Below are positions 1,419 to 19,898 of a stretch of 20,757 nt of DNA, piece by piece. Both the position numbers and the translations under genes were made by a program. Location of the stretch: NCBI GenBank assembly GCA_008632985.1, contig QPGO01000146.1, positions 186,001 to 206,757 on the forward strand, in the 5' to 3' direction. The notes beneath the pieces were generated by a model that did no database searches, had not been told where the DNA came from, and saw only the letters and a program-made list of their open reading frames with translations. Origin of the DNA: Psammoneis japonica (Eukaryota). Every line of letters begins with the position of its first letter. Within the stretch, counting starts at the first letter, position 1.

Positions 1419-1804
1419 CTACAAAGGTTCACCACATTGTTGTGCAATACTCTTCCTTTGATGTATCAACGGTTCTATGACTGGCCACCTGAGCCAGGAG
1501 TATGCAAAAGCGGAAGCTGATTCAACAGAAACTCTGGATAACCTTGGTACTTGTGTTGGACAAGTCTTTTACAGCAATAATTTTCCGTTCACCACCAAGT
1601 CCTCCTTGGCTACCGCCGCATCCCTATCGGGTTCTTTTAATCATTGTTGTGATGTTGTTGAGCAGTGACGAAGCAAAACTACCCTAAGCGAGTGTGCATA
1701 ATGGTCATTTCCTTTTTAAAAATTGTTTCTTATACATTGATTAGTTTGATACTTCATTTTCTGTAAGATGATGTGAAAAGCCTATACCTAAAGGATAGGA
1801 CAAT

Positions 1805-2146
1805 CTAGACACAATTCGGATCATAGAAACACTCACAGCAACCGTCACATTTATCCTTTTCATCTGTGCAAAAGGCCTTTCCCTTGAAATGCCACCAGCG
1901 ACAAGACCAATAGTCCTTGGTGCATTGGTATTTGCATCTGCCAAGATCCCAAGTCGGGTCGCCGGGCGGAATATAGCACCACTTGACAAGGTAGAGTTCC
2001 CTATCATCTAGTTCTTGAAAATTGTCGGTGATACCCTGAGGCAGCATCTCATTGGATGACGAAGGAGAAGAGGCTCGAAGATGGTAGTCCTTTGTTCCGT
2101 TGGCACTAGCGATGAGAAAAAGAATGATGCTGGAAGAAAGCTTCAT
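1805..2146 (-). CDS. Secreted cysteine-rich peptide precursor (113 aa): signal peptide, HLRA..REL propeptide, 10-Cys mature domain
   Basis: MKLSSSIILFLIASANG is a signal peptide. A Ser/acidic prosegment ends in DREL (RXL-type site), followed by a W/Y/K-rich C-terminal domain with 10 Cys including CC. Normal Tyr usage, so it lies outside the mutated block. Confidence 0.8.
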   Translation of the reverse strand: MKLSSSIILFLIASANGTKDYHLRASSPSSSNEMLPQGITDNFQELDDRELYLVKWCYIPPGDPTWDLGRCKYQCTKDYWSCRWWHFKGKAFCTDEKDKCDGCCECFYDPNCV

Positions 2147-3118
2147 GAGGTTTGCAGGGTGTTGATGCGGCGTCTTGGGAGTGTTCTTTATTGTCAGTTT
2201 TGGATTTTGTGAGAGCGGTGCTGGTCCTCATCTGATCCGCATTTGAGGAGTCGTGGCGGGATGCGAACTGGGAACGAGAGTCCGAGTCTTGGATGAGGGG
2301 TCAAAAAGCGAACAGTGAGTCACGAGTCTGATTCACGGATAAAGCCCAAAGGTTTTTATCTCAGCTTCCGGAATGAGTGTCCGTTGAGTCTTTCCTGGCT
2401 AGAGTGGACAGTGATCAGAGTGACTCTGTGGGCCATCAGGTCAGAATGACACATGCAACCAAGGAGAGATCTTGTCACAATTCATGGCCTGGTCAAAGGT
2501 CACAGTGGTCTCACACAGAACTTTTGCCAAAAAGGCGGCAGCTGTGCTGTCTGCTTCACCAGAGTTTCGCGAGCAGGGATGAGGTCATGGCACACAGTGC
2601 TGCTGGAGACTTCAGCTCAGATGCCCAGACAATTGAGTGACTGGCATGGAAGAGGCAGCATCCAGAGCTTTGTGCTTCAATGGTGCGGCGCGGGCACTTC
2701 AGCAGCAGTTTGAATGCCCAGAAGATTTCCCAAGAGCGCACTCATCTTGGAAGCAAGCTTGAAAACTGCTGCCCAAGCTTGTTGCAAAACAAACATGCCA
2801 ACCTTGACTTCAATCATCTTGACCTGCTTTTCTGCATCTGGTTTCCTCAAAGTGCTGCACAGGAAAGGTGCGCCAGGGAGGTTCTTGGGGGCTTCTCCTC
2901 AGCCTGCTGCCTGCAGCAGCGCAAGCTCTTGCGTTTTCAGCACTTTGTGTGCTCCAGCACCAAAGTTGGTCTCAGTGATGCTAGACAAGCAGGCTGCACC
3001 TGGCATCCAACTGGGATCTTGCTTTGTTCTGCTGGGTTGATGCACACTTTGCCCCCATGTGCTTGGCAGACAAGAGCCAGCTCTTCTTGTTGGACCTTCT
3101 TGTGTGTGCTTGTGCAGC

Positions 3119-3138
3119 GGGGGGGGGGGGGGGGGGGG
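3119..3138 (+). repeat. G20 homopolymer (poly-Pro on the minus strand: SPESSPPPPPPR)
   Basis: Twenty consecutive G read directly from the sequence. The length may be unreliable in the assembly. Confidence 0.9.
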
Positions 3139-4064
3139 CTTGACTCTGGAGAAAGTGCTGTTGGCTCTGGAGATGCTTCAAGTGGCAGCAAGTTTCTTTC
3201 TTCTTGCAGGGCTGTTTGCTGGCTGCAGACAGAACAAACAGGTGTCAGACACCTCTGTTTCCTTGTGGCGTTTTTCTGGCAAAACATTCATGTGGGAATT
3301 TTGTGCAACATCAAAAAAGAGATGAAGAGGTTGAATTAAAAAATGCAACAGAGACACACAAAAGTGCAGTGCAACATCAGGAGTGACAATGGCACCCAGG
3401 TGGGGATGAAAACAACATCCACGCTGTGATTTCAGGCACAGCGTGTGCACAACAACACAAACATGACAAATTTGGCTGATGCGCCATTTGGCTCACTCAT
3501 GTGGTCTGTCCAAGTGCTCCAGTTGACCACTCAAGATGATGCCATTGTCATCAACATTCCATGTGGTTGCTGCAAGCAACTCACACAGGAAATGTCAAAA
3601 ATGGCTGGTGGCAATGATGCCCTGAATTCAACTGCAGCCTGCATCCACTGTGAATGTGTGGGCACATGCTGTCTGCACTTGTCACTCACCATGTGACATG
3701 TCTGGTGCAGTTGTCACACACACACATTGATCAATGGTGTCACCAGTGGCGTGCCATTGTCAGCATTGAATGCTGCACAAAAAGCACGGGGACAACTCTT
3801 CTGTTGCATTTGTCTGTCTGTTGCCCACTTGTCTCATGGAACATGCGTGAAAGTTCCCATGCTTTGTGGTCTGTCCATGCTTCATCTGACAACTGTTTGT
3901 TCCTCTGACAACTGCTTGTTTTGCACACAGCCAGGTTGCTGCACACTCAGTCAGCTTTTGAGCACCTTGAGCTGCAGGAGGGGCTTGAGGCACAGCTCCT
4001 GGTGAGAGTTCCAAGCACAACTCAACATTTGCTGCACTGCTGCAAAAAGTGAGTTGGCTCACTC

Positions 4065-5819
4065 TCAAGACTGATGGCTGTGTCTCAAAATTCTGTCAAA
4101 CACACATTTCCTGCGCTGTCTTTTTTGGTTCCTTGTAAAGATGCTCAGGAGGAGTGAGAATCTCATCTTGCAGGTGCTGCACACCAGGGAGCTTTCCCTT
4201 CTCCAGCAGAGTGCAAGAAGTGGGCTGTCTAAGGCACAGTTGCCCCCAACAGCCAGGTGGCTCTGTCTCCTTCTCAGCAGAAAAAAAGTGTTGAAAACAT
4301 CATCAAAGACCACACGGTGTTGGGGAGCAATGTTTCTGATCTCACCCAAGCTGACAAAAAGATCAAGCAAGGCAAGAGCAAGGTTGCAGCTGAGGTGGCT
4401 TCTTTCCAGATGTGAGCGCTGGACTGAAGATGTCGTGTGCCAGGCATCCCCAGCAGGTGTGGACATCTCTCAAGCAATGGCAAGAAGGTGCTGGGGAGCA
4501 AGCAGAAAAGTTTGTTGGCGGCACCCAAGGGTGCTGGGAGCAAAGCAGACATGTTGTGCAGCAACACAATGTGATGCTGCCATGAGCAACAGCCCCCCCT
4601 TGCAGTGAGTTGACGTGTGCAAAGGAGTGCTGCTCTTGCCACAATGGAAGCTGTGGTCAGATGACAATTTGCACACCAAATGCACCACCCAGTGCAAACA
4701 CTTGGGCATTCTGAGCAGTGCCACAGCTGTTGTGCTGCAGCTGACCATGCCCAAGCTGAAAAAGAATCTGGGGGGAAATGCATTGCAGCAAATTGCATCC
4801 TCTGAGTCCCTTTGTGACAGGTGTTGCATGGCCAGCATGCTTGAGCCACCTTCAGGAATGGTGCATTTTGCCCCAACAATGTCAAAAAGGGCCAGCTGCT
4901 TGTTGCACAGAGGCAGGGGTTTCAAAGTCTTTCCGCTTCCACCATTGAGACAAATCTGGGTGTTGACCCACATTTCTTGTTTGTTGGGGTTGGTGGGCTT
5001 TGATGAAGACAGACAACAAGAAGAGCACCAAAGCACAAGAAGTCACACATTGCGTGGCTCCTCAAGCAACACAAAAGTTTGCCCCTGCCCCCCTGCTTCC
5101 TCATGGCAAGCTGGATCTCAAGAGCACAGCAAAGCATTTTGCACTTTTGGCCAGTTGTTTTGAGGACAGGCAACTCAAGACAAGCTGGAGCATGGCTTGA
5201 AACAACAGCAAAAAGCAAAGGTCAGACCTCACAAACTGAGCGCCAAGTTGCTTTGGGCAAGTGAGGAGGAGCTGTTCAGAGCTCATGGCTGGAAGCCCGC
5301 TGCAGAGATTGCACGCCCAGCCAACAACATTTGCAGCTTGGGGAGCACATGGTGTGGGGTCTTGTGCACAAGTTCTTGGAGTGCAGCCAAGAAAGCTGCT
5401 TGCAGCCAGCTTCAAAATGGTGCTGCCCTTGCTGCTGCCATCTTCTTGAGCTCCAACTCAGCCACTCAGCTTGCTGCATCTTTGGCCATTTGCAGCTTCA
5501 GCAGGGCTGTGCAGAGTTTCTTAATTTGAGACTTGAGAGTGGCTGGCTGCAGCACCAGATGGGCAAGTGCCCACAGCTTTGTAGATGACAGAAACCACTC
5601 TGCCTGCTTTGGTGGGTGATGACAGTGCAAGAACAGATGCAAGAGATGCACCCCTGGCTGAGGAAGCTTGTTTGCTGGGCCTTGTTCAGCAACACCACCA
5701 GAGGGACTTGGCTTGGTGATTGCACACTTTTTGGCCCCTCTTTTGCTCTGGAACTGCTGTCCCTTGTGCTGTTGTTTGCCTGGCCTGTGTGCCAGGGCTG
5801 CAGCCCCATTGCTTGACAA
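4065..5819 (-). pseudogene. Fossil long reading frame inside the mutated block
   Basis: ORFs 5466-5819, 4470-5036 and 4065-4466 share one minus frame and are separated by TGA stops, as expected from CGA->TGA. Some segments read as protein-like and helical: TLKSQIKKLCTALLKLQMAKDAAS*VAELELKKMAAARAAPF* and LALALLDLFVSLGEIRNIAPQHRVVFDDVFNTFF. Confidence 0.4.
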
Positions 5820-7789
5820 TGACCTGTGCTTGTCTTTCTCCTTGTCTGATGTGCTGCCACAGCTTCAGCCCAGTTTGGCAGCAGCAAAGGCAGCACTGGC
5901 AGTGCCAAAATGCAGTGCATCTTGAAAGAATGAGAGGGGGCTCATTTTTTGCCCTGTCACCAGGGGTGACAAAAGGGTCAAAAGGTGTGCAGCTGGCTGG
6001 CTTCAGGAGATGAGAGGCTTGTTGTTGGTGGTGGTGGGCTCCAGAAAAATCTCCAACTTTGAGCAGCAGAGATCTCTCAAGAAGAAGCTTGTTTGAGCAA
6101 TGCCCCTTGGCAAGCGCCAAGCCAAGCAATCCCTTGCTGACACCACACTGCTCCAGAAGCATTGCAGCCTTTGGGGAAAGTGCTCATGCACTGACTTTCT
6201 GTGAGCTTGGGACCCACCATTCTGCCCCCCAAGATCTTTTGTGCATGTGGGCAACAGAAAACTCCAGCCAAGGAAAAAGAGCTGCAAAAAGCATTGTGAT
6301 GCCAACAGCAGCTGCGATGCACCCCTCTTCAAATGCTTGCCACCTGGGCTTCCTGCTTGCATGCTTGCCCCAATGTTTGGGCTTGGGGCTGCCTTGTTTG
6401 CCCAATGCTGCACAATGACTTTCAGCCACAGTCAGAGAGAAAAGTGCATTTTGTTGCAATTTTTTTGCTCCTGGCACAGCTCCAGCCCAAAAGGTTTTTT
6501 GCCCACAGGGGCTCTGGGCTCCAGATGACCCTTTTTTGCACACAGCACCAAACAACTTCAGCCTTGCAGCTCAGTGTCAGCCAGCGCCACCTTGCAAAGA
6601 AACTTGGCCACAGTGCTTGTCCATGCAGAGTGCCATCATGAACCCTGAGGCAGCTGGCCACACTTTCTCAGCTTTGTGCACAAGAGATGCATTTGGCAGG
6701 GTCAAGCTGCCAAAAATTGCAAAAAATCATGCCCTTTGTGGGCTGCTGTGGCTGCACAGAAGAGCAACTTTTCACACCCCTGCATCACACCCTCTTTTTT
6801 TTCCCTTGCAAATCATCTGCTTTGGCATGCCAGCACCCAAGGGCTCAAAAAAGAGCTGTGTCACACAAAGAGGACACATCTGCCTGATGATGAAAACAAA
6901 GGCAAAGTGAGTGCCAGGTGCTGTGTGCCGCCAGCAGCACTTCCTTTTTTGTGAGTGCTTTGTCACATTGGCTGCTTCTTCTGGCTGAGGTGAGGCATTT
7001 GTGCATGGAAGAGCAGGCTTTGGACCAGTGCTGGTGTGCTGAGAAGTGGTTGTCAGGGGCACATGCACAGCCAGCAGCAGCCAACAAAAACATGCTTGTC
7101 ATTGCTGGCTGCAGGGTTTGCAATGGCTGCCATGCTGGCTCTTCTGGCATGCATCATCCTCAGCAAGATCATTGCATGACTTCTGCAATGTGGCGCACCT
7201 CAGCTGGAGTGCACCTGCTTTGAGAAAAAGCCAATGCAAAAAGTGCATTTGGACAACATGATTGCAGGCAGGACAAGTGCTGGGCACTCATGTTGCCAGC
7301 TGGGGGTGTCTGATGTTGCTGCTGCTGGGAGTCATTTTTGTTTGCAAGTGCTTCATCATGCTGGCCACTGCAGCATTTGCACAGCAAGACAGGGCTTGCA
7401 CCTGGCATTGTCATCTTCAAGCAGTGCTGGCAAAGCTGTGCAACAAGCTCTTGGTCAAGGGTCAAGCTTTGTGTGGAGAGCTGAGCAGGCTTTGGGGCCA
7501 TCAGAGGTGGCAACACAGTGGTTTCCACTTTCCTTTGTAAAATTTTTAATGTGCATTGTCAACATTGTTGACAAGCAGAATTGAAAAATTGCCAGCAAAA
7601 GTGCTCTGCAAAATGAAGCTGTTTCTTGAATTTCATCTGATGTCTCATTGACTTTTCTTGCACAAGCTTCAATCAAATGCATGCAATGTCAAATTTAATT
7701 GGGATCAAAATCCATTTTTTTTGTGATGCATGGTTTGGTTTTCTTTTGATCACAATCAATTTGAACTTGGTTTTAACTTTGTCCTCCTC

Positions 7790-8290
7790 ACTCACGTGCG
7801 TGTGTGTCTTTGCACGTGTGCAGTCTGCAGCACTTTGCGCACGCACGTGACCCACCTTCATTTTTCTTCATGTTTCCCAGATTTGCACAGCCCGTTGGTC
7901 CACGGCATTTTTAGTGTGTGTTTTGCATGCGCAATTTTCTGCACACTTCACAACAGTGCACCCTCTCCCCAAAGTTTGAAAAACAAGAGCGTGCGCTGTT
8001 GTGACTCACGCGGATCCTGCGTGTGGTCGCAAATCTGCAAATCGACAACCGGCCATGGCAGTGAAAGACTTTGCCCCATTGGCCGATGACAGCGGCTCAA
8101 CGTGTGGTGAAACCTGCCATCCTTCTGGTTGGTCAAGATGGGGTTTTATTTGGGTGCAGCTTGAATTTTGTGATTGCGAGTGTGCTGTCACGAAGCTGCC
8201 GTGTCCAGAATGCTGAGCTCTGGCATGTTGTTGTGTGTTGTGTGCATGCACGTCACAAACCAGCTTTTCTGCAGCGTTGGCATGATCGCG
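7790..8290. promoter_or_regulatory. CpG-retaining island inside the mutated block; possible former promoter upstream of a fossil minus-strand gene starting near 7682
   Basis: Many CG sites remain (cacgtgcg, gcgcacgcacgtga, cacgcggatcc, atcgacaaccgg, gatcgcg), but only 2 TA were seen. The promoter role is inference from position. Confidence 0.35.
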
Positions 8291-8324
8291 CATGCCAGAG
8301 TTTTGCATCCAGAATCATCACAAG

Positions 8325-8618
8325 TTGCCACAAATTACACTGTTCAAACAAGGCATGTGCAAAAAGAGGTTCATTGGTTTTTGATGCATTCGCCAACAAC
8401 ACATCCGTCTTCTCCAATTTCTGTGTCCAGACCCAGAAAGACTGCAGGCGGTGCTTGTTCCTGCAGCTCTCAGAATCACACATGTGAAAAGTTCTTTGCC
8501 ATGCATGAAACTCTTCAAAAAAGGCATGCACAAAAAGAGCTTCATTCATTTTTGATGTGTTCACTTACGTTGCATCCGTCTTCTCCAATTTCTGCACCCA
8601 GATCCAGAAAGACCGCAG
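8325..8618 (+). repeat. Diverged direct repeat, ~123 bp units at 8325-8447 and 8496-8618 (period 171 bp)
   Basis: Ungapped alignment with shared cores aaggcatg..caaaaagag and catccgtcttctccaatttctg..ccagaaagac. Many mismatches are CA<->TG or CG<->CA/TG. Confidence 0.9.
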
Positions 8619-8765
8619 AGGCAGAGAGTGGGGAGGCAACCCATTGGAGGTTGCCTGAGTTGTTGGGCTCATTTTAAAAGGCTTCCCAAGTCTCTCTGCT
8701 GTTTGTGGTCAAGAGCAGGGGGGGTCGACTGCAACAATTGCAGCAGCTGCCAATTCCATGTCGAT

Positions 8766-9098
8766 GGGTCGGGAACCAGCAGCAGAAGCTCCCAAATTGG
8801 CAGTGGCAGATGCACCTGCAAGTCTGCATTGCAGCTTCAATTGGTTGCTGTTGTTGTCCTGTGCACTCTCTCACAAAGCATTTTACATTCATGTTTGCAA
8901 TGAACAAGGTGGATCAGAGCAATGTTGCTTCACACCTGACTGGCCCAGAATCAGCTTTGATGCGGGGTCGGGAGCCGGCAGCAGAAGCGACCAAATCTGC
9001 CACGGCGGATGCACCAGCAAGTCTGTGTTGCGGTTTCAATTGGTTGCTGTTGTTGTTCCATGCACTCTCACAAAGTGTTTTGCACTTCTTTGCAATGA
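8766..9098 (+). repeat. Diverged direct repeat, ~135 bp units at 8766-8903 and 8965-9098 (period ~199 bp)
   Basis: Shared gggtcggga.cc.gcagcagaagc, ttcaattggttgctgttgttgt and tttgcaatga. Mismatches are concentrated at CA/TG/CG/TA positions. Confidence 0.9.
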
Positions 9099-11013
9099 TT
9101 TGCCATTGTGAACAGAGTGTCGCTCATTTGAAGGCGTTGCGTTTGGATTGCTTGCCATGTCTCAGTGTCAAGATTGTGCTCTCAACTGCGTGGGAGTGCA
9201 AGCAGAGTTCAAAGAGGTCCAAGCTTGCGCTTGCGAAGGCAGTGGTGCATTTCACTTTTGCTGCAGTGAGCTCTGGCTCTGCCATTTTGTGCATCAGCTT
9301 TGCACCTTTCTCTTGGAATTCAGTTGTTGCCTCTTTGAATTCATTGACAAGCCTTTGTCTCCATCTGTGTCATTTAAATTAAGCGCAAACAACAAAATGG
9401 AATGTTCACAATGCAAACAATTTTAAATTGCAGGTTTTGCAGGAATGGAGGGTGGGCACTCTCACAGGGAAAATGGTTGGCTGTTTCACAGTGAATGGTG
9501 TTGCCTCACAGGACAGTCACGGGCTCCACAGCAACAAGTTTGTCTTTCACAGTTAACAAATTGTCACCACGCACACAACTGGCAAGGTTTGAAACCACAA
9601 AATTTTTAACTGTGACAGATTAAAAAATTCACCATGAGAAAGTTGGTCTGATCACTGTGTTGCGCGCTCTGATGGCTGCACAGACAAACATCGCGCCATT
9701 GCCAAAAAAACACAGCCAATGCAGAGCACAAGATTTGTCATGGCTTCCATGCTTGCTCTTTTGCAATGCTTTCAGGAGACACATGTTTTTGCCTTCTTTG
9801 CAAATTTGTTTTGCAGCTTGCTCCCACACACCACACTCAATGCCACTGTCGTCAACACAGAAAAGTCTCTCCCCAAGGGGCATTTGCACCATGTTTTGGC
9901 TGGCATGCTCCACCCCAAAAAGCCACTGCACAATGAACAGCAGCAGCTGGGCTGAGAATGACAAAGCAAGCTGGCCAACTTTTTTAAGCTGAAGCTCACA
10001 ACCTGCAGCCACACGACGAATTGTGAGTGCAGCACACACAGCAGCATGCTGGTGCTTTCATCGACAGGAGCAAGAAAAAACTGACAAGACAATGGCTTGA
10101 AGTCTTCAACAGCAAACACAATCAGAGCACATTGGCCAGAGCCAAAAGCTGCAACAGGGTGCCAGCTCAGCAGACATGATTGTGAAAGAACGCAACTTGG
10201 CTGCTCCCATTGCAACATGAGCGGATCCACTGCAGCAGTTTTCTTTGGCTGCTGGTGTGTGATGATGGCATAAAGCCAAGCAGCAATGCACAAAACAAGG
10301 CACTTTTTGTGACTGGATTGACTTGTTTCAGATCAACAGAAACTTTCAATTGAGCAAAATTTGGACATGGGACAACAGAAAGGAGCACAGTGAGAGAAGA
10401 AGCTCAACTTTGCTTTGCACCCACCAACAACTTTTTCAGATGACTTTGCGGCTGCCCCCACCCTGTCTCCCACAACATGTAACTGAAGACAAAGAGCAAG
10501 CTGTCATCAAGGATTGCATTGGTGATTGGTTGATTGTTGGTTGAGGGACTCTGGGCAGAGCATGAGGCTCGTGTTTCTCGCTTCCAAAATCATCCAAGAA
10601 CCTTGTCGAGGTTTGAAGCATCGCACGGACCAAACATGGGTGCAAATCCGTGCGAAGCCGATTCTGGCGTTATGAATCTCGTTTGCATGTTTTGCAATGT
10701 ATACTTGACACTACTTCCTGTCCGCATCATTTCGATGGTCGAACGTTTCTCATCAACTTCGCAGCTTTGCCGATGACTGCCCTAAAAACTTTCTACGTTT
10801 TTGGCCCGGATTGCTCCCCAGGATGCGGGTGTTACCATAGTGTAGTTAATTGTTATTCTACGAACGGTCGATTTGAAATGCAGCTTTTTCCGATGAACTT
10901 CCATGAGTCGGCTCTTTAGTCGCAGTTTAAAGCGATTTCTGAACTAGATCTGCATCCAAGAGAAATCAAAAGCTCTATATCACATTTCTATTTAATCGAG
11001 TTGTTCTCATTGT

Positions 11014-11753
11014 TTAGAACAATCCAAAGAACTTCTTCTTATCGTCTCCTCCTTTCTTGAAATCATTGACATTGGGAGCCTTGTAGTTTTTGGAAAACTT
11101 GGGTGCGGCTCCCATGGCGGATTCCGGTCCTCGCTTGGCACGGCTGCCGCTCCAGTCAAGGCCTTCCCCAAAGCCCAGAACGGAAACGGATTGTTCCTTG
11201 CGGTAGCCGCCGGCGGCGTACGCCTTGTCGCTCGCCAACCATGTTTTCTTGTTGCGGGCATTCTTGACATCGGAATTGTCCCAAGATCCTCCGCGTTGCA
11301 TGTACTGTACGTAAGTTTTGAAATAGCATTGTACAAAAAAATATTGGGTGTAAGAGACGACACTCGTGATGACAACGCCCATTCATTGTTACATCCAATC
11401 AATCATATTCTTCTACTTACAGGAATATCTTCCTTTCGGATCTTTCCGGATTTCAGTTTTTCTTTGGCATTAAACATGGGCATGAGATGCGTCGCTTCGC
11501 CTCGCTCCATGGCTTCTTGAAAGGATTGCATAGATCTTGACTTGAAACCTCTTGGTCCCAAACCACCCAAGTTTCCCGGTCGCAGACGCTTTCGTTCTTC
11601 TTCCTTGAATTTCTTGTAACTCTCGGGAGTAAAGCCATCGGGAACATATGCAAAGAGCGCCGTACTACTACGTGTTGGTGACGACGACGATGCAGTAAAC
11701 CCACTCGATACGCCAACAAGAGCAGCAAAAAGAGCAATGCAAACAGTCTTCAT
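11014..11753 (-). CDS. Plastid-targeted hypothetical protein, 207 aa (exons 11753-11421 and 11304-11014)
   Basis: Signal peptide MKTVCIALFAALVGVSSG followed by F and an S/T-rich transit peptide (ASAFAP-like bipartite signal). A 116-bp phase-0 intron at 11420-11305 (GTAAGT...TACAG) joins KEDIP to YMQRGGSWDNSD. The C-terminus is KKKFFGLF. It resembles a diatom/algal uncharacterised family (from memory, not searched). Confidence 0.88.
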
Positions 11754-14284: not shown

Positions 14285-15207
14285 ATGCGCTTCAACATCT
14301 TACTGCTCATGCTTTTTGCCCCTCGTGACGGGTCGCCGACGATGAGGTGGTTCTAGGTGAAGGTACAATTTTCACGGGAGGCGAGTCTAACCACACGCAT
14401 AGCGGTGCATGCCGTTTGAAACTCCAGCGTGATGGCAACCTGATTGTCCGACGCCGTGGCCCCTTTTGGACCGTCCCAAACGACCCTGATCCCAGGGAGG
14501 ACTCTATCAGTTGGACCAGTGGTCATCACCAAGTTGGAAGTTATCATGCGAGGCTTCAGAACGATGGAAACCTTCAAGTCATTTTCCACGGATCGGATGC
14601 TGAAGAAGTTGTCTTTTCAACTCATGTGGTATCCTTTCCTGACAATGAGCCGGCTCCGAGTCATGATTTACTCTTTACCGACAACTGCATTCTGAAAATT
14701 CAGAGAAAGTTTCCTGACGGGAGTAAGGACATCATTTGGCGAAACATCCACGGCTGGCTTGATAACTTTTCAGCCGACGAGTATCCCGGACTGGACAATG
14801 TAATGCAAAAGGGCGAGTTTTTTTCGTATCCCAATCAAAACCACGGAACGGTATGTGGCACGGGAGCCAACTTTTGTATGGAGGTACCCTTTTCGCTTCG
14901 ACTCCAACAGGATTGCAACCTGGTGAGCTTTGTCGGACACGACTTTGGGGATGCGGCTGCCGTGGTGTGGTCGGCGGGTGTGGCGCGGCCCCAGTTTGAC
15001 AATTGCTATCTCTTGGTGGACTCGAACGATGTAGCGCTTTATGAAGGTGATTTTGATCCAACGCTTCCGCCCAATTCGAACCGCCCCGGAAAGTATTGGA
15101 GTGTGCCACAGAGTTTTTTTGATGACGCTGGCGGGTTCCAACCGGGTACTTCTACGTACCAGATTCTCATCAACAATGCAGGCCAGATGTATTTGGATTG
15201 GGATTAG
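14285..15207 (+). CDS. Secreted bulb-type (GNA-like, B-lectin) domain protein
   Basis: QxDxNxV-type motifs LQRDGNLIV, LQNDGNLQV and LQQDCNLVSF. ATG at 14285 follows a CAA-rich leader. The signal peptide MRFNILLLMLLPLVTVADDEV is restored by removing one T (~14315) and one G (~14331) from homopolymers, guided by the paralog at 17044. Confidence 0.8.
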
Positions 15208-17043: not shown

Positions 17044-19898
17044 ATGCGATTCTATCTCTTACTGCTTGTACTTTTGCCTCTTTTGGCTCTCGCCGATGAG
17101 GTCATTTTGAGGAAGGGTACAGTGTTGACGGAGGCGAGTCTCTTCATACCAGTAATGATTCCTGCCGCTTGAAGCTCCAGCGCGACGGCAACTTGATTGT
17201 TTATCGACACGGTCCTTTTGCGCCCACCCCGGGCAACTCTGATGCCTTTGACGAGGTCATTAGTTGGACCAGTGGTCGCCACCAAGTAGGAAGCTACTGT
17301 GCGGAGCTTCAGGATGATGGGAACCTCCAAGTCATTCGTCCGGCGGAGTCAGGCGATGAAGTGGTGTATTCGACACACGTCTATCCGTCCCCTTCAAACA
17401 AGCCAGCTCCTACTCATGAGCTATTATTTACCGACAACTGTATTCTTGAAATAAAGAGGACCTTTTCTGACAAGAGCTACGATATTATATGGGAGAATAT
17501 CCATACTACGCTGGATAACTTTTCGGCAGAGAAGCGTCCCGGAAGGAACAACGTGTTGCAAAAGGGCGAGTTCTTTTCGTACCCAGCTAACAACCATGGG
17601 GCTGTTTGCGGCACCGGAGCCAACTTTTGCATGGATGTGCCCTTCTCAATTCGGCTTCAACACGACTGCAACCTTGTGACTTTTGTCGGACACGACTATG
17701 CAGATGCGGCAGCCATTGTGTGGTCGGCGCGTGTGCCTCGCCCCAGTTTTGACAAGTGTTATCTGCTGCTGGACGTGAACGACGTGGCACTTTACGAAGG
17801 AGATTTTGATCCTACTCTGGCGCCGAATTCGGACCGCTCTGGAAAGTACTGGAGCGTGCCGGAGAGTTTCTTTGACGAGTTGTCGACCGATGGATCCTCG
17901 AAGTACCAGATTCTCATAAACAATGAGGGCAAAATGCATCCTACAACTATGAGACCACCCACTATTGCTCCCACCACTCCGCCTCCTATCACCATTGGTC
18001 CGACAACAGATTCGCCCACGCCATCCCCAACATCTTACAGCGACTTTCTGAGCGGGCTGTTGGCAGAAAGAAGTCCTTGGTCTGTGGATGCTCTGAAAGA
18101 GCCCAGTTCGGCCCAAACCCAAGCTTTCGATTGGCTCTTGGCCGATGAAGTTACCAGTGATTTGGAAGAGCCTGATGAAAATCGCATTCTTCAACGATTT
18201 GCCCTTGCAACGATCTTTTACGCCATGGAGGACGAAGATTTTATGGACGAAACGTGGCTGGAAGCGACAGACGAGTGCACTTGGAGCGGTGTCGATGCAT
18301 GTGGCTCTGAGGGTGGGTTGAAGAATCTAACGATTGATCAAGATAACATTAAAGGCCTGCCGCCGGAACTCGGCCTATTGACGAACCTAGGTGCGATCAT
18401 ATCTCGTTAAGGATTGCTTCTTTCCGCTTGTGCATTCGATCTAACACGATGTTTTCTTCTCGTCGAAAGTACACTTTCATGTGTCTTCGAATGTATACGA
18501 CATCAACGTTGCACCACAAACCAATCTTTTGCCTTCAACCATAGGTCTGCTAACTGACATGAGTAAGTTATTATGTTTGGACCTAATCTCTTCCGGCTCA
18601 AATGAAAAACGAAAAACATTCACACGGTACTTGATTCCATGTCCTACTTTCTAGGGCGATTTGACGTGGGGTACTACGTGGATGGCGCGCCTCTAGAAGC
18701 GGGATACACTGGAGGACCAATCCCCCCTGAGGTGGGCCAGCTGACGCGTCTAAAGGAGCTGCGTTTCGGTGGAGCGTTCACGGGCACGTTACCTCAACCG
18801 ATTTGTTCCCTCGATGAATTAGAACAAGTCAAAGTCGACTGTGACGATTTCTTTTGTGGCGACTGCAGGTATTGCCCAAATTGTTTCGACTCTTATGAGA
18901 TTTCCGTTGAGGCAATGTCGGTGGTCGATCTGGGACCCGATGGAGAATTTGACTTTCTCCAGGAAGCTGGTGGTGAAAATAAGAATCAGTTTTATGTGAA
19001 TAATAGGTTTCTCACGATGAATGACCGAGAAGAATGCGTTGTGTTAGAAAGCCAAAGATTGCCGCCAATACCGCTAGGCCATTCCCTAGCAAATGCCGTG
19101 CTCGCTGGATCCATTATTGGGCAGGGATACAGCGGCGAGACACCGGTGATCCAGGTCTTTGCCTATGCTGGAAACGGCATTGTTGAAGTTGACGACGTCG
19201 ACGCGACAAATAATGAGCAGAACAGAATCGAGCTTCTAACACAGGACGGCGGCGTGTTCAATTTGGATATTAAAGAGTTCGTTCGGGACCTGTATGATCA
19301 AGGAGAGAAGTACTTGGGATTGGCCATGAGTCAGAAGAGCGTCGGAGCATACTCCAGGGTTGCAGACCTGGCTGTCACTCTAGGCATTGATGTGGACTGT
19401 GAGGCTGTCATTTGCTCTTGCTACGAGGCCGCCGTATGCAACTTGGAACTGCCTCCCAAACCAACGGACGCGCGTCATTATGTAATTTACTATGATGATG
19501 AAAGGTGCATAATGCTCAAAGACGGCAACACATCTGAGTGCAATCCTTTGGTCATTGGAAACTGCAGTGATAGCATTCCTGGTTATCCCGCAGAAGCACT
19601 GTGGTGGAGAGACGAACACGGCTTCTGGCACCCATATCTAGACAGTAGCATGTGCATGCAAGCTGGGTGTGGAGAAGAAAGTGTTGCGGAAGGATCTACA
19701 ATTCATATTGCCAAGTGTGATATCAACAACAAGAGCCAATGGTTCGGGAAGTCTGTATGGTCCAGCGACAATTTCTCGATTGAGGAGAGGCCAGACCTCT
19801 GTGCCACTGGAAATAACGTAGGCGATGAAGTCGTTTTGAAAACTTGCAGCTCTGACCATGACTCTTGGAATTTCAATACCGGTGCATCTCAAGACTGA
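17044..19898 (+). CDS. Secreted multidomain protein, ~894 aa: B-lectin, Pro/Thr stalk, LRR with Cys caps, beta-sandwich-like module, ricin-B lectin (exons 17044-18390, 18470-18562, 18655-19898)
   Basis: Signal MRFYLLLLVLLPLLALA. One G is missing near 17090 relative to the paralog. LQRDGNLIVY lectin motif. LRR cap AQTQAFDWL..RILQRFALATIFY..ECTWSGV..C. Plant-type LRRs LPPELGLLTNL, LPSTIGLLTDM, IPPEVGQLTRL, FTGTLPQPICSL. Phase-1 introns at 18391-18469 (GT..CTAAC..AAG) and 18563-18654 (GTAAGT..TAG) keep the frame. C-terminal CIM..IGNC..ALW / CMQA..IAKCD..SQWF repeats. Confidence 0.85.

Follow-up and report, generated by a model that had tools for sequence, protein, structure and literature searches.

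We report here the analysis of a 20,757-nt stretch of contig QPGO01000146.1 (below, the window, always meaning the whole stretch), in which a 501-nt island at 7790-8290 keeps CG and has almost no TA. The island lies in an 8.2-kb block poor in both dinucleotides (2400-10560) and, within this block, in an apparently multi-copy element bounded by inverted repeats (7497-9676). On the whole, the results support that TA loss and CG loss are separable in this DNA, since the two are blocked by different neighbours (TTA in the one case, GCG in the other) and differ in extent. The reading that we favour, at slightly better than an even chance, is that two separable processes act on one target domain, with the TA process complete and the CG process only beginning in the younger, nested repeat.

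Composition of the island and of the block

The features defined by composition are the following.

2400-10560, no strand: block poor in TA and CG and rich in CA and TG (dinucleotide counts; no protein domain detected)
7790-8290, no strand: island, CpG-rich segment with 2 TA (dinucleotide counts)
7793-7849, no strand: three clustered CACGTG palindromes on the left edge of the island (word count)

The island has base frequencies of A.19, C.25, G.26 and T.29 (GC 51.7%). It contains 27 CG, with an observed/expected ratio (o/e) of 0.81, and two TA (o/e 0.07), located at 7912 (cattttTAg) and 8147 (gggtttTAt) and each preceded by a T-run. This is in accordance with the first-pass annotation of this DNA, which had described ~500 bp rich in CG with only two TA sites, both after T-runs. 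Base composition, which that annotation had named as a competing cause of the TA scarcity, is ruled out, since two or fewer TA occur in 0 of 20000 base-composition shuffles of the island (mean 27.9, sd 4.0); 27 or fewer CG occur in 1638 of the 20000 (mean 33.4). At the TA o/e of the flanks (0.56), 15.7 TA would be expected in the island (Poisson P = 2e-5). When CG and TA are profiled separately in 200-bp steps over 7700-8299, as had been proposed, CG o/e is 0.64-0.89 while TA o/e remains at 0.08-0.09.

The surplus of CG in the island is evident on both sides. Set against 2400-7789, the island has 27 of 61 CG where its expected share is 0.089 (P = 3e-13), and set against 8291-10560 it has 27 of 63 where the share is 0.21 (P = 8e-5). 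The onset is sharp, with 0 CG in 7195-7794 and 27 in the next 495 bp. CpG islands are usually defined by a length of at least 200 nt, GC of at least 50% and CpG o/e of at least 0.6. In sliding 200-nt windows with GC of at least 0.5 and CpG o/e of at least 0.6, only two stretches of the block pass, ~7769-8300 and 8923-9169, and the former corresponds to the island.

Beyond what the first-pass annotation had noted, the island does not stand by itself as a relic; it is one part of the TA- and CG-poor block, inside a repeat. The block holds 26 TA in 8161 nt, that is 0.3% of dinucleotides against 3.9% in the flanks, and TA o/e is between 0.00 and 0.15 in all nine sub-segments. CG o/e is 0.10 in 2400-7789 and 0.29 in 8291-10560; by sub-segment, it is 0.27 (2400-2950), 0.08 (2951-7496), 0.00 (7497-7789) and 0.81 (island), with 0.26, 0.63, 0.32 and 0.18 in further ones. 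The o/e of CA is ~1.93 and that of TG 1.65-1.79 in the block, and the gene-bearing flanks have CG o/e of 0.9-1.0 and TA o/e of 0.56-0.57. The uncoupling of TA loss from CG loss, the central claim of that annotation, is thus borne out by TA o/e that is low throughout, CG o/e that ranges from 0.00 to 0.81, and the different neighbour rules described below. TA depletion starts and ends within ~100-200 nt of CG depletion. Counts of TG and CA are balanced in each 1-kb window of the block (absolute z at most 0.9), showing that both strands are hit throughout.

The block sequence is also found in contigs of a DNA run (X1), which match the whole block at 95-100% identity with the same TA- and CG-poor sequence, and which span both borders (record 1, 1595-2513; record 7, 9603-11309); X1 is possibly the sample behind the window's assembly, in which case it is not independent. 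The block has many long open frames because TAA and TAG are nearly absent, and Pfam gives nothing credible for its 73 stop-to-stop open reading frames (ORFs), only noise at E > 1e-4. Rfam and tRNA scans have 0 matches. In viral_contigs there are 0 matches for a protein query and 0 for an island 27-mer; in metagenome_contigs, an island 22-mer has 0 matches, and a two-protein alignment gives 341 pattern matches, none of them confirmed.

At the left edge of the island, CACGTG occurs at 7793, 7813 and 7844, that is three times within 57 nt, while the flanks (12.5 kb) have it once, at 331, and a word count finds none elsewhere in the block. The cluster may represent transcription-factor sites. The words quoted in the first-pass annotation are all present, ACGCACGTGA at 7841, TGCACGTGTGCA at 7811, and TACGTA at 11308 and 15468 (as well as at 15153). 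That the CACGTG words might be TA-converted TACGTA words, as was suggested there, is compatible with the word counts. A transition-blind (purine/pyrimidine) alignment of the island against the flanks finds no relative (score 34, shuffle mean 35.6). Among 21 chunks of 500 nt aligned in the same manner, 19 are within 7 points of one shuffle each; the chunk at 10400 overlaps the flank trivially, and that at 10000 scores 50 against 34 for its shuffle. Scores so near the shuffles indicate no ancestor of the block within the window.

Neighbour rules of TA loss and CG loss

Taking flank composition as the assumed reference for the starting composition of the block, we compared the survival of TA among contexts. 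TA without adjoining T or A survives at 1.6% of flank density (3 observed; 287 in the flanks), TA with one extra T or A on one side at 4.8%, and TA with at least three in a row on one side at 18%. Survival reaches ~86% for the TTAA type, flanked on both sides (13 observed; 23 in the flanks), and a Fisher test of TTAA against VTAB gives P = 2e-11. All ten context classes are fitted by a model in which the strands are hit independently and the rate depends on the base 5' of the pyrimidine. For CG, GCGC is at flank density in the block (11 observed, 11.7 fitted), with P = 4e-10 in a Fisher test against HCGD. Where TTAA and GCGC persist, other TA and CG contexts are cut 10- to 60-fold. The fitted per-strand survivals are as follows.

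TA, whole block, by 5' neighbour: A.04, C.14, G.13, T.93
CG, 2400-7789, by 5' neighbour: A.25, C.20, G 1.0, T.06

The island itself shows the CG rule in a weaker form. TCG on a strand accounts for 6 of its 27 CG against 52% in the flanks (P = 0.0015), and the shortfall persists against the island's own base composition (P = 0.022). The fitted CG loss in the island is k(T) = 0.91 and k(C) = 0.43, with k(A) and k(G) below 0. The TCG shortfall together with the same order of loss would suit an early stage of the same CG decay better than it would full protection.

Within the block, the window and the X1 contigs differ by 28 substitution rows, of which two are transversions. Grouped as 22 events, they comprise 10 in which one allele has CG, 3 in which one allele has TA, 3 swaps of tandem TG/CA, and 6 others. 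The TA-type events, few as they are, are all TA against CA or TG, and in 7 of the 10 CG-type events it is X1 that has the CG, the window reading TG or CA. Sites of the window differ from X1 at 2 of 26 TA, 4 of 97 CG and ~0.1% of others, so that the variability of a CG site is ~40 times that of the others. These differences, which are not polarised in direction, give evidence that change in the block may be ongoing. Tandem TG/CA swaps would arise if two lineages had each resolved a single ancestral CG or TA, but on opposite strands.

Of the 22 differences, 5 are double or triple transitions at neighbouring positions, mostly TG against CA (3751-3752, 3827-3828, 4618-4619, 8155-8156 and 9844-9846), and such changes recur between the old sub-repeat copies at 8325-8618 and 8766-9098. 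Besides the substitutions, a run of 20 G at 3119-3138 is 10 shorter in an X1 contig, either a homopolymer polymorphism or an assembly error. Two skips in X1 contigs are possible indel polymorphisms, one of 33 nt within 6364-6398 (one contig, well anchored) and the other of 366 nt within 2512-2879 (one contig, 29-nt anchor).

The inverted-repeat element and the retention of CG

The island is contained in a repeat element, whose parts are listed below.

7497-9676 (2.2 kb), no strand: repeat element bounded by inverted repeats, non-autonomous transposon-like, nested in the block (arm alignment, depth)
7497-7553, plus strand: left terminal inverted repeat (arm alignment)
9616-9676, minus strand: right terminal inverted repeat (arm alignment)
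8325-8447 and 8496-8618, plus strand: two tandem copies of a 171-bp internal sub-repeat (79% identity)
8766-8903 and 8965-9098, plus strand: two tandem copies of a 199-bp internal sub-repeat (114/140 columns identical)
8923-9169, no strand: second, smaller CpG-retaining patch in the element (10 CG, o/e 0.63; 0 TA)

The arms (57-61 nt) align inverted with a score of 42, which 0 of 500 dinucleotide shuffles reach (mean 20.0, max 35). At 7499, the outer edge of the left arm, X1 contigs have loose ends whose mutual agreement is poor (0.57), as expected of differing flanks. The summed depth of X1 contigs is 1475-4912 in bins 7458-9112 and 632 in 9444-9774, with ~55-65 in the surroundings, so that the left 1.6 kb of the element has 25-85 times the summed depth of its neighbours; elsewhere it is 44-66, with smaller peaks of 89 and 278 within 3486-4147. 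Summed contig depth is not copy number, and the contigs are filtered at an identity of at least 95%; read in this way, it is evidence that the element exists in many near-identical copies. The raised stretches at 3817-4147 (278) and 9444-9774 (632, including the right arm) are probably further pieces of repeats in the block.

Variants at 10% or more of the depth in bins 7458-9112 amount to 4 substitution rows and 2 indels, none of which creates a TA. With so few variants and none making TA, the TA-free, CG-bearing state is common to the copies of at least 95% identity, and the depth over the island likewise shows that neither its CG nor its TA state is peculiar to this locus. The earlier idea of a local former promoter escaping CG decay is not supported as it was put, the island being instead internal to an apparently multi-copy repeat. 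The alternative raised with it, a later insertion of naturally TA-poor DNA, is realised in part, in that the island does lie in a nested, multi-copy element. Overall, the element has a CG o/e of 0.46 and a TA o/e of 0.10. Its CG o/e is above that of both neighbours, the block core to the left (0.08) and the remainder to the right (0.18), which fits a later, nested insertion. The island begins ~300 nt inward of the left arm, and in the 293 nt of the element that precede it there are 0 CG. Pfam finds no transposase domain in the element, and the sequence next to the arms shows no evident target-site duplication; if there was a short one of TA, the TA process may have removed it.

The sub-repeats allow a comparison of copies within the element. 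The 171-bp copies differ by 17 transitions and 9 transversions, several tandem CA/TG swaps included, and the 199-bp copies by 14 transitions and 4 transversions. In the latter pair, 5 sites are CG in the second copy and TG or CA in the first, and 0 are the reverse.

Under the favoured reading, the first process would change TpA to TpG or CpA on both strands equally, would be blocked by a T before the T (equivalently, by an A after the A), and would have run to completion over the whole 8.2-kb block. The second would change CpG to TpG or CpA, hitting TCG hardest, then CCG and ACG, and sparing GCG, with progress very unequal among sub-segments. Their common target may be a silent-looking, repeat-bearing DNA domain. 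The island would be the CpG-richest part of the multi-copy 2.2-kb element, and this family would have lost TA before, or without, losing CG, because its copies at an identity of at least 95% are all already TA-free. The island would then keep CG mainly since the second process is slower or later in a younger, recently amplified repeat, and complete shielding would be unnecessary to explain its CG. Composition, neighbour rules, the inverted repeat, the surplus depth and the predominance of transitions among the differences from X1 are direct observations, whereas we infer both the direction of change and the relative age of the element; the CG process may be methylation-linked deamination, and the TA process may, by analogy, be TpA-specific hypermutation of foreign DNA as in Bigelowiella natans.

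Several points weigh against this reading. Direction and age are taken from composition alone, and flank composition stands in for the starting composition of the block. The 199-bp copies, though of the same age, differ 5 to 0 in the CG kept, which suggests local differences in CG loss and some protection, not age alone; the 293 CG-free nt left of the island likewise make CG retention uneven within one element. Summed depth is not copy number, and copies below 95% identity, possibly bearing TA, are filtered out. The element lacks an evident target-site duplication (bases flanking the arms) and a transposase (Pfam). The argument from rates borrows the numbers of B. natans, while the named flank homologue is from a diatom and not from a chlorarachniophyte. 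In addition, X1 may be the window's own assembly sample.

Some of these observations speak for a possible but less probable explanation, in which the island has a regulatory role, for example as the promoter of the element with its CACGTG boxes, and is kept free of cytosine methylation, so that it escapes CG decay, while the TA process is indifferent to methylation or chromatin. The island passes the usual CpG-island thresholds (GC 51.7%, o/e 0.81, ~500 nt), its onset of CG is abrupt, and the CACGTG density at its edge far exceeds that of the flanks. Its position ~300 nt inside the left arm is a usual place for a promoter, as transposon promoters usually lie just inside the terminal repeat. 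The 5-to-0 difference between sub-repeat copies and the CG-free first 293 nt also favour protection, age alone being insufficient for them. However, the most exposed context, TCG, is already scarce in the island, which suggests that decay has begun, and neither an ORF family (Pfam) nor an RNA family (Rfam) is found there.

It is improbable that CG in the island is maintained or regenerated, be it by biased mismatch repair of TpG/CpA to CpG, by GC-biased gene conversion or by homogenisation among copies. The high uniformity of the family at an identity of at least 95% would permit concerted evolution, and with CG in X1 at 7 of 10 CG-type differences, gains are indistinguishable from losses; for human TDG, repair leading from TpG/CpA to CpG has been described (PMC4041421). 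The deficit in the island is nevertheless ordered by context, with TCG lowest, which resembles loss and not gain, and the block core (CG o/e 0.08) bears no sign of regeneration. Purifying selection on the island's CG, through a protein or a structured RNA, is very improbable: stop-to-stop frames of 120-140 codons do traverse the island, but long frames are expected in all six where TAA and TAG are nearly absent, and the translations are Cys-rich and of low complexity, without a Pfam family, the Rfam and tRNA scans being empty. That the pattern comes from base composition or chance, or from errors of assembly or base calling where bases are modified, is scarcely credible. The window and X1 do differ at the homopolymer at 3119 (20 G and 10 G respectively) and also at several CG/TG sites, in a way that resembles long-read errors at modified bases. 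The shuffles (0/20000) and the separately built X1 contigs, which carry the same block sequence and bridge both borders, nevertheless reject this explanation, barring a flawed read set common to X1 and the window.

Flank genes and comparison with known systems

The genes of the flanks give some indication of the host. Pfam on 8 + 39 flank ORFs gives only sub-threshold matches to F-box, bulb-lectin and ricin-B. A 419-aa ORF has one relative, at 56% identity. A 413-aa ORF belongs to a family of ~300-aa secreted-looking proteins, with 16 relatives at 42-62% identity, and has a further weak match (32%) to a leucine-rich repeat protein; its sole named relative is from the diatom Tryblionella compressa (42% identity). 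Protein-atlas leads are weak and from Bacillariophyta, and a second protein-atlas query has no usable match. The ORFs 14329-15204 and 17100-18407, 2753 nt apart, are paralogous at ~71% nucleotide identity with sub-threshold bulb-lectin matches, and their family (~300 aa, secreted-looking) is found in marine data sets and one named diatom. On the minus strand, the small ORF 1808-2143, whose upstream side adjoins the left border of the block, begins like a signal peptide, ends in a Cys-rich tail and is covered entirely by a contig of another run (X2). X2, whose kind is guessed, covers parts of the flanks only (1579-2193 and 10879-11304), and its contigs at 1579 and 11304 run on for 255 letters into unlike sequence, as they might at splice junctions, should X2 be RNA.

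The closest known case is that of B. natans (Mettrop et al., bioRxiv 10.64898/2026.01.13.699255), and a literature search on TpA-specific hypermutation found this preprint alone and no report on a diatom. There, mutation-accumulation lines show, in integrated giant-virus and virophage DNA, changes of TpA to TpG or CpA at ~6e-7 per site per generation, ~1000x the genome baseline, and almost no other changes; the genome has 124 clusters with the same composition signature. The present block resembles these clusters, which carry TpA depletion with gain of CpA and TpG in 1-kb windows as a long-term signature: their thresholds are passed by 7 consecutive 1-kb windows (3001-10000), with rho TpA of 0.00-0.10 and rho(CpA+TpG) of 1.72-2.00. 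Mean TpA frequency is 0.0018 in the low-TpA coding set of B. natans and 0.0020 in 2400-7789 here. In B. natans, transposon and virus domains are over-represented among the targets, as is unannotated sequence; here the block holds a multi-copy inverted-repeat element, and Pfam finds no virus or transposon protein domain among its 73 ORFs. Co-located CpG loss, the sparing of TTAA and of T/A runs, the sparing of GCG and CpG-keeping islands all go beyond the main text of the preprint, which has 0 mentions of CpG, TTAA, 'context', 'flanking' or 'trinucleotide', although its Table S2 may contain neighbour information. No account of CpG methylation in Bigelowiella was found in the literature consulted. 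B. natans is a chlorarachniophyte, whereas the named flank homologue here is from a diatom, and the two flank ORFs have no near-identical protein in the databases, their best matches being at 56% and 62% identity. We accordingly take the host to be a probable diatom, and one that is probably distinct from B. natans.

The CG side of the pattern is reminiscent of methylation-driven decay. It is known that methylated CpG decays in transposons, that CpG islands escape this in vertebrates, and that transposons carry CG methylation in diatoms. The likeness lies in the change of CG to TG or CA, in the ~40x variability of CG, and in an island that passes the CpG-island thresholds. Spontaneous deamination of 5-methylcytosine is not known to depend nearly so strongly on context as the loss in this block, where GCG is fully spared and TCG is preferred ~fourfold over ACG or CCG.

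Repeat-induced point mutation (RIP) of fungi is another comparison. Classical RIP changes CpA to TpA, and is recognised by TpA/ApT of at least about 0.89 and (CpA+TpG)/(ApC+GpT) of at most about 1.03. The block has 0.07 and 2.14 respectively (flanks, 0.58 and 1.25), and classical fungal RIP is rejected, as the indices are opposite and TpA is destroyed. The block is like RIP in that transitions are hypermutated in repeat or foreign DNA with sharp borders and a fixed short context; it is unlike RIP in that the repeat copies (at least 95% identity) are uniform and not individually scrambled, and in that the host is not a fungus. A TpCpG variant of RIP is described in Pucciniomycotina (Horns et al. 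2012, PMC3318451), and here also TCG is the most exposed CG context (per-strand survival.06). ACG (.25) and CCG (.20) are lost here as well, and we claim a likeness in the way of working, not membership.

As to a candidate enzyme, the proposal made for B. natans is an adenine deaminase of the ADAT type that acts on DNA (10.64898/2026.01.13.699255). Deamination of DNA by the tRNA adenosine deaminases ADAT2/ADAT3 is described for amphioxus BjADAT2 (PMC10354150), and for Trypanosoma TbADAT2 as cited in that preprint. The natural target of ADAT2/ADAT3, A34 after U33, is a TpA context, and one enzyme deaminating both A and C would give TA to TG and CG to TG. To our knowledge, the 3' rule (A spared before A) is not a known property of ADAT. 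It is conceivable, although rather doubtful, that a diatom lineage has a two-armed editing defence against foreign or repeat DNA, with one arm changing VTA to VCA and the other HCG to HTG, both directed at the same domains with sharp bounds, each acting on one strand at a time under a single 5' veto (T for TpA, G for CpG), maybe by one ADAT-like deaminase on A and C. In that case TTAA and GCGC would be immune, the island would be DNA finished by the A arm only, and transposons could persist in a TA-free form that is still able to amplify.

The only description to date of TpA-specific hypermutation in invading DNA is that of the 2026 preprint, which concerns one alga, and no enzyme has yet been assigned to it. 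The present case extends this very recently described kind of genome defence, and the two-process inference of the first-pass annotation is supported and sharpened by it. The neighbour rule is precise, with TTAA and T/A runs immune and the strands independent, and any candidate deaminase or base modifier must reproduce it. The context-specific CpG loss (TCG above CCG and ACG, these far above GCG) shares the domain borders of the TA loss, and the island shows that the two are separable. Amplification of the repeat family seems to have followed its loss of TA. In fully edited DNA, all TAA and TAG stops and all Tyr codons are gone, leaving spurious long open frames. If the host is a diatom, the TpA process would be wider among algae than one rhizarian, and the recognition of transposons, viral insertions and 'orphan' genes in such genomes would be affected.

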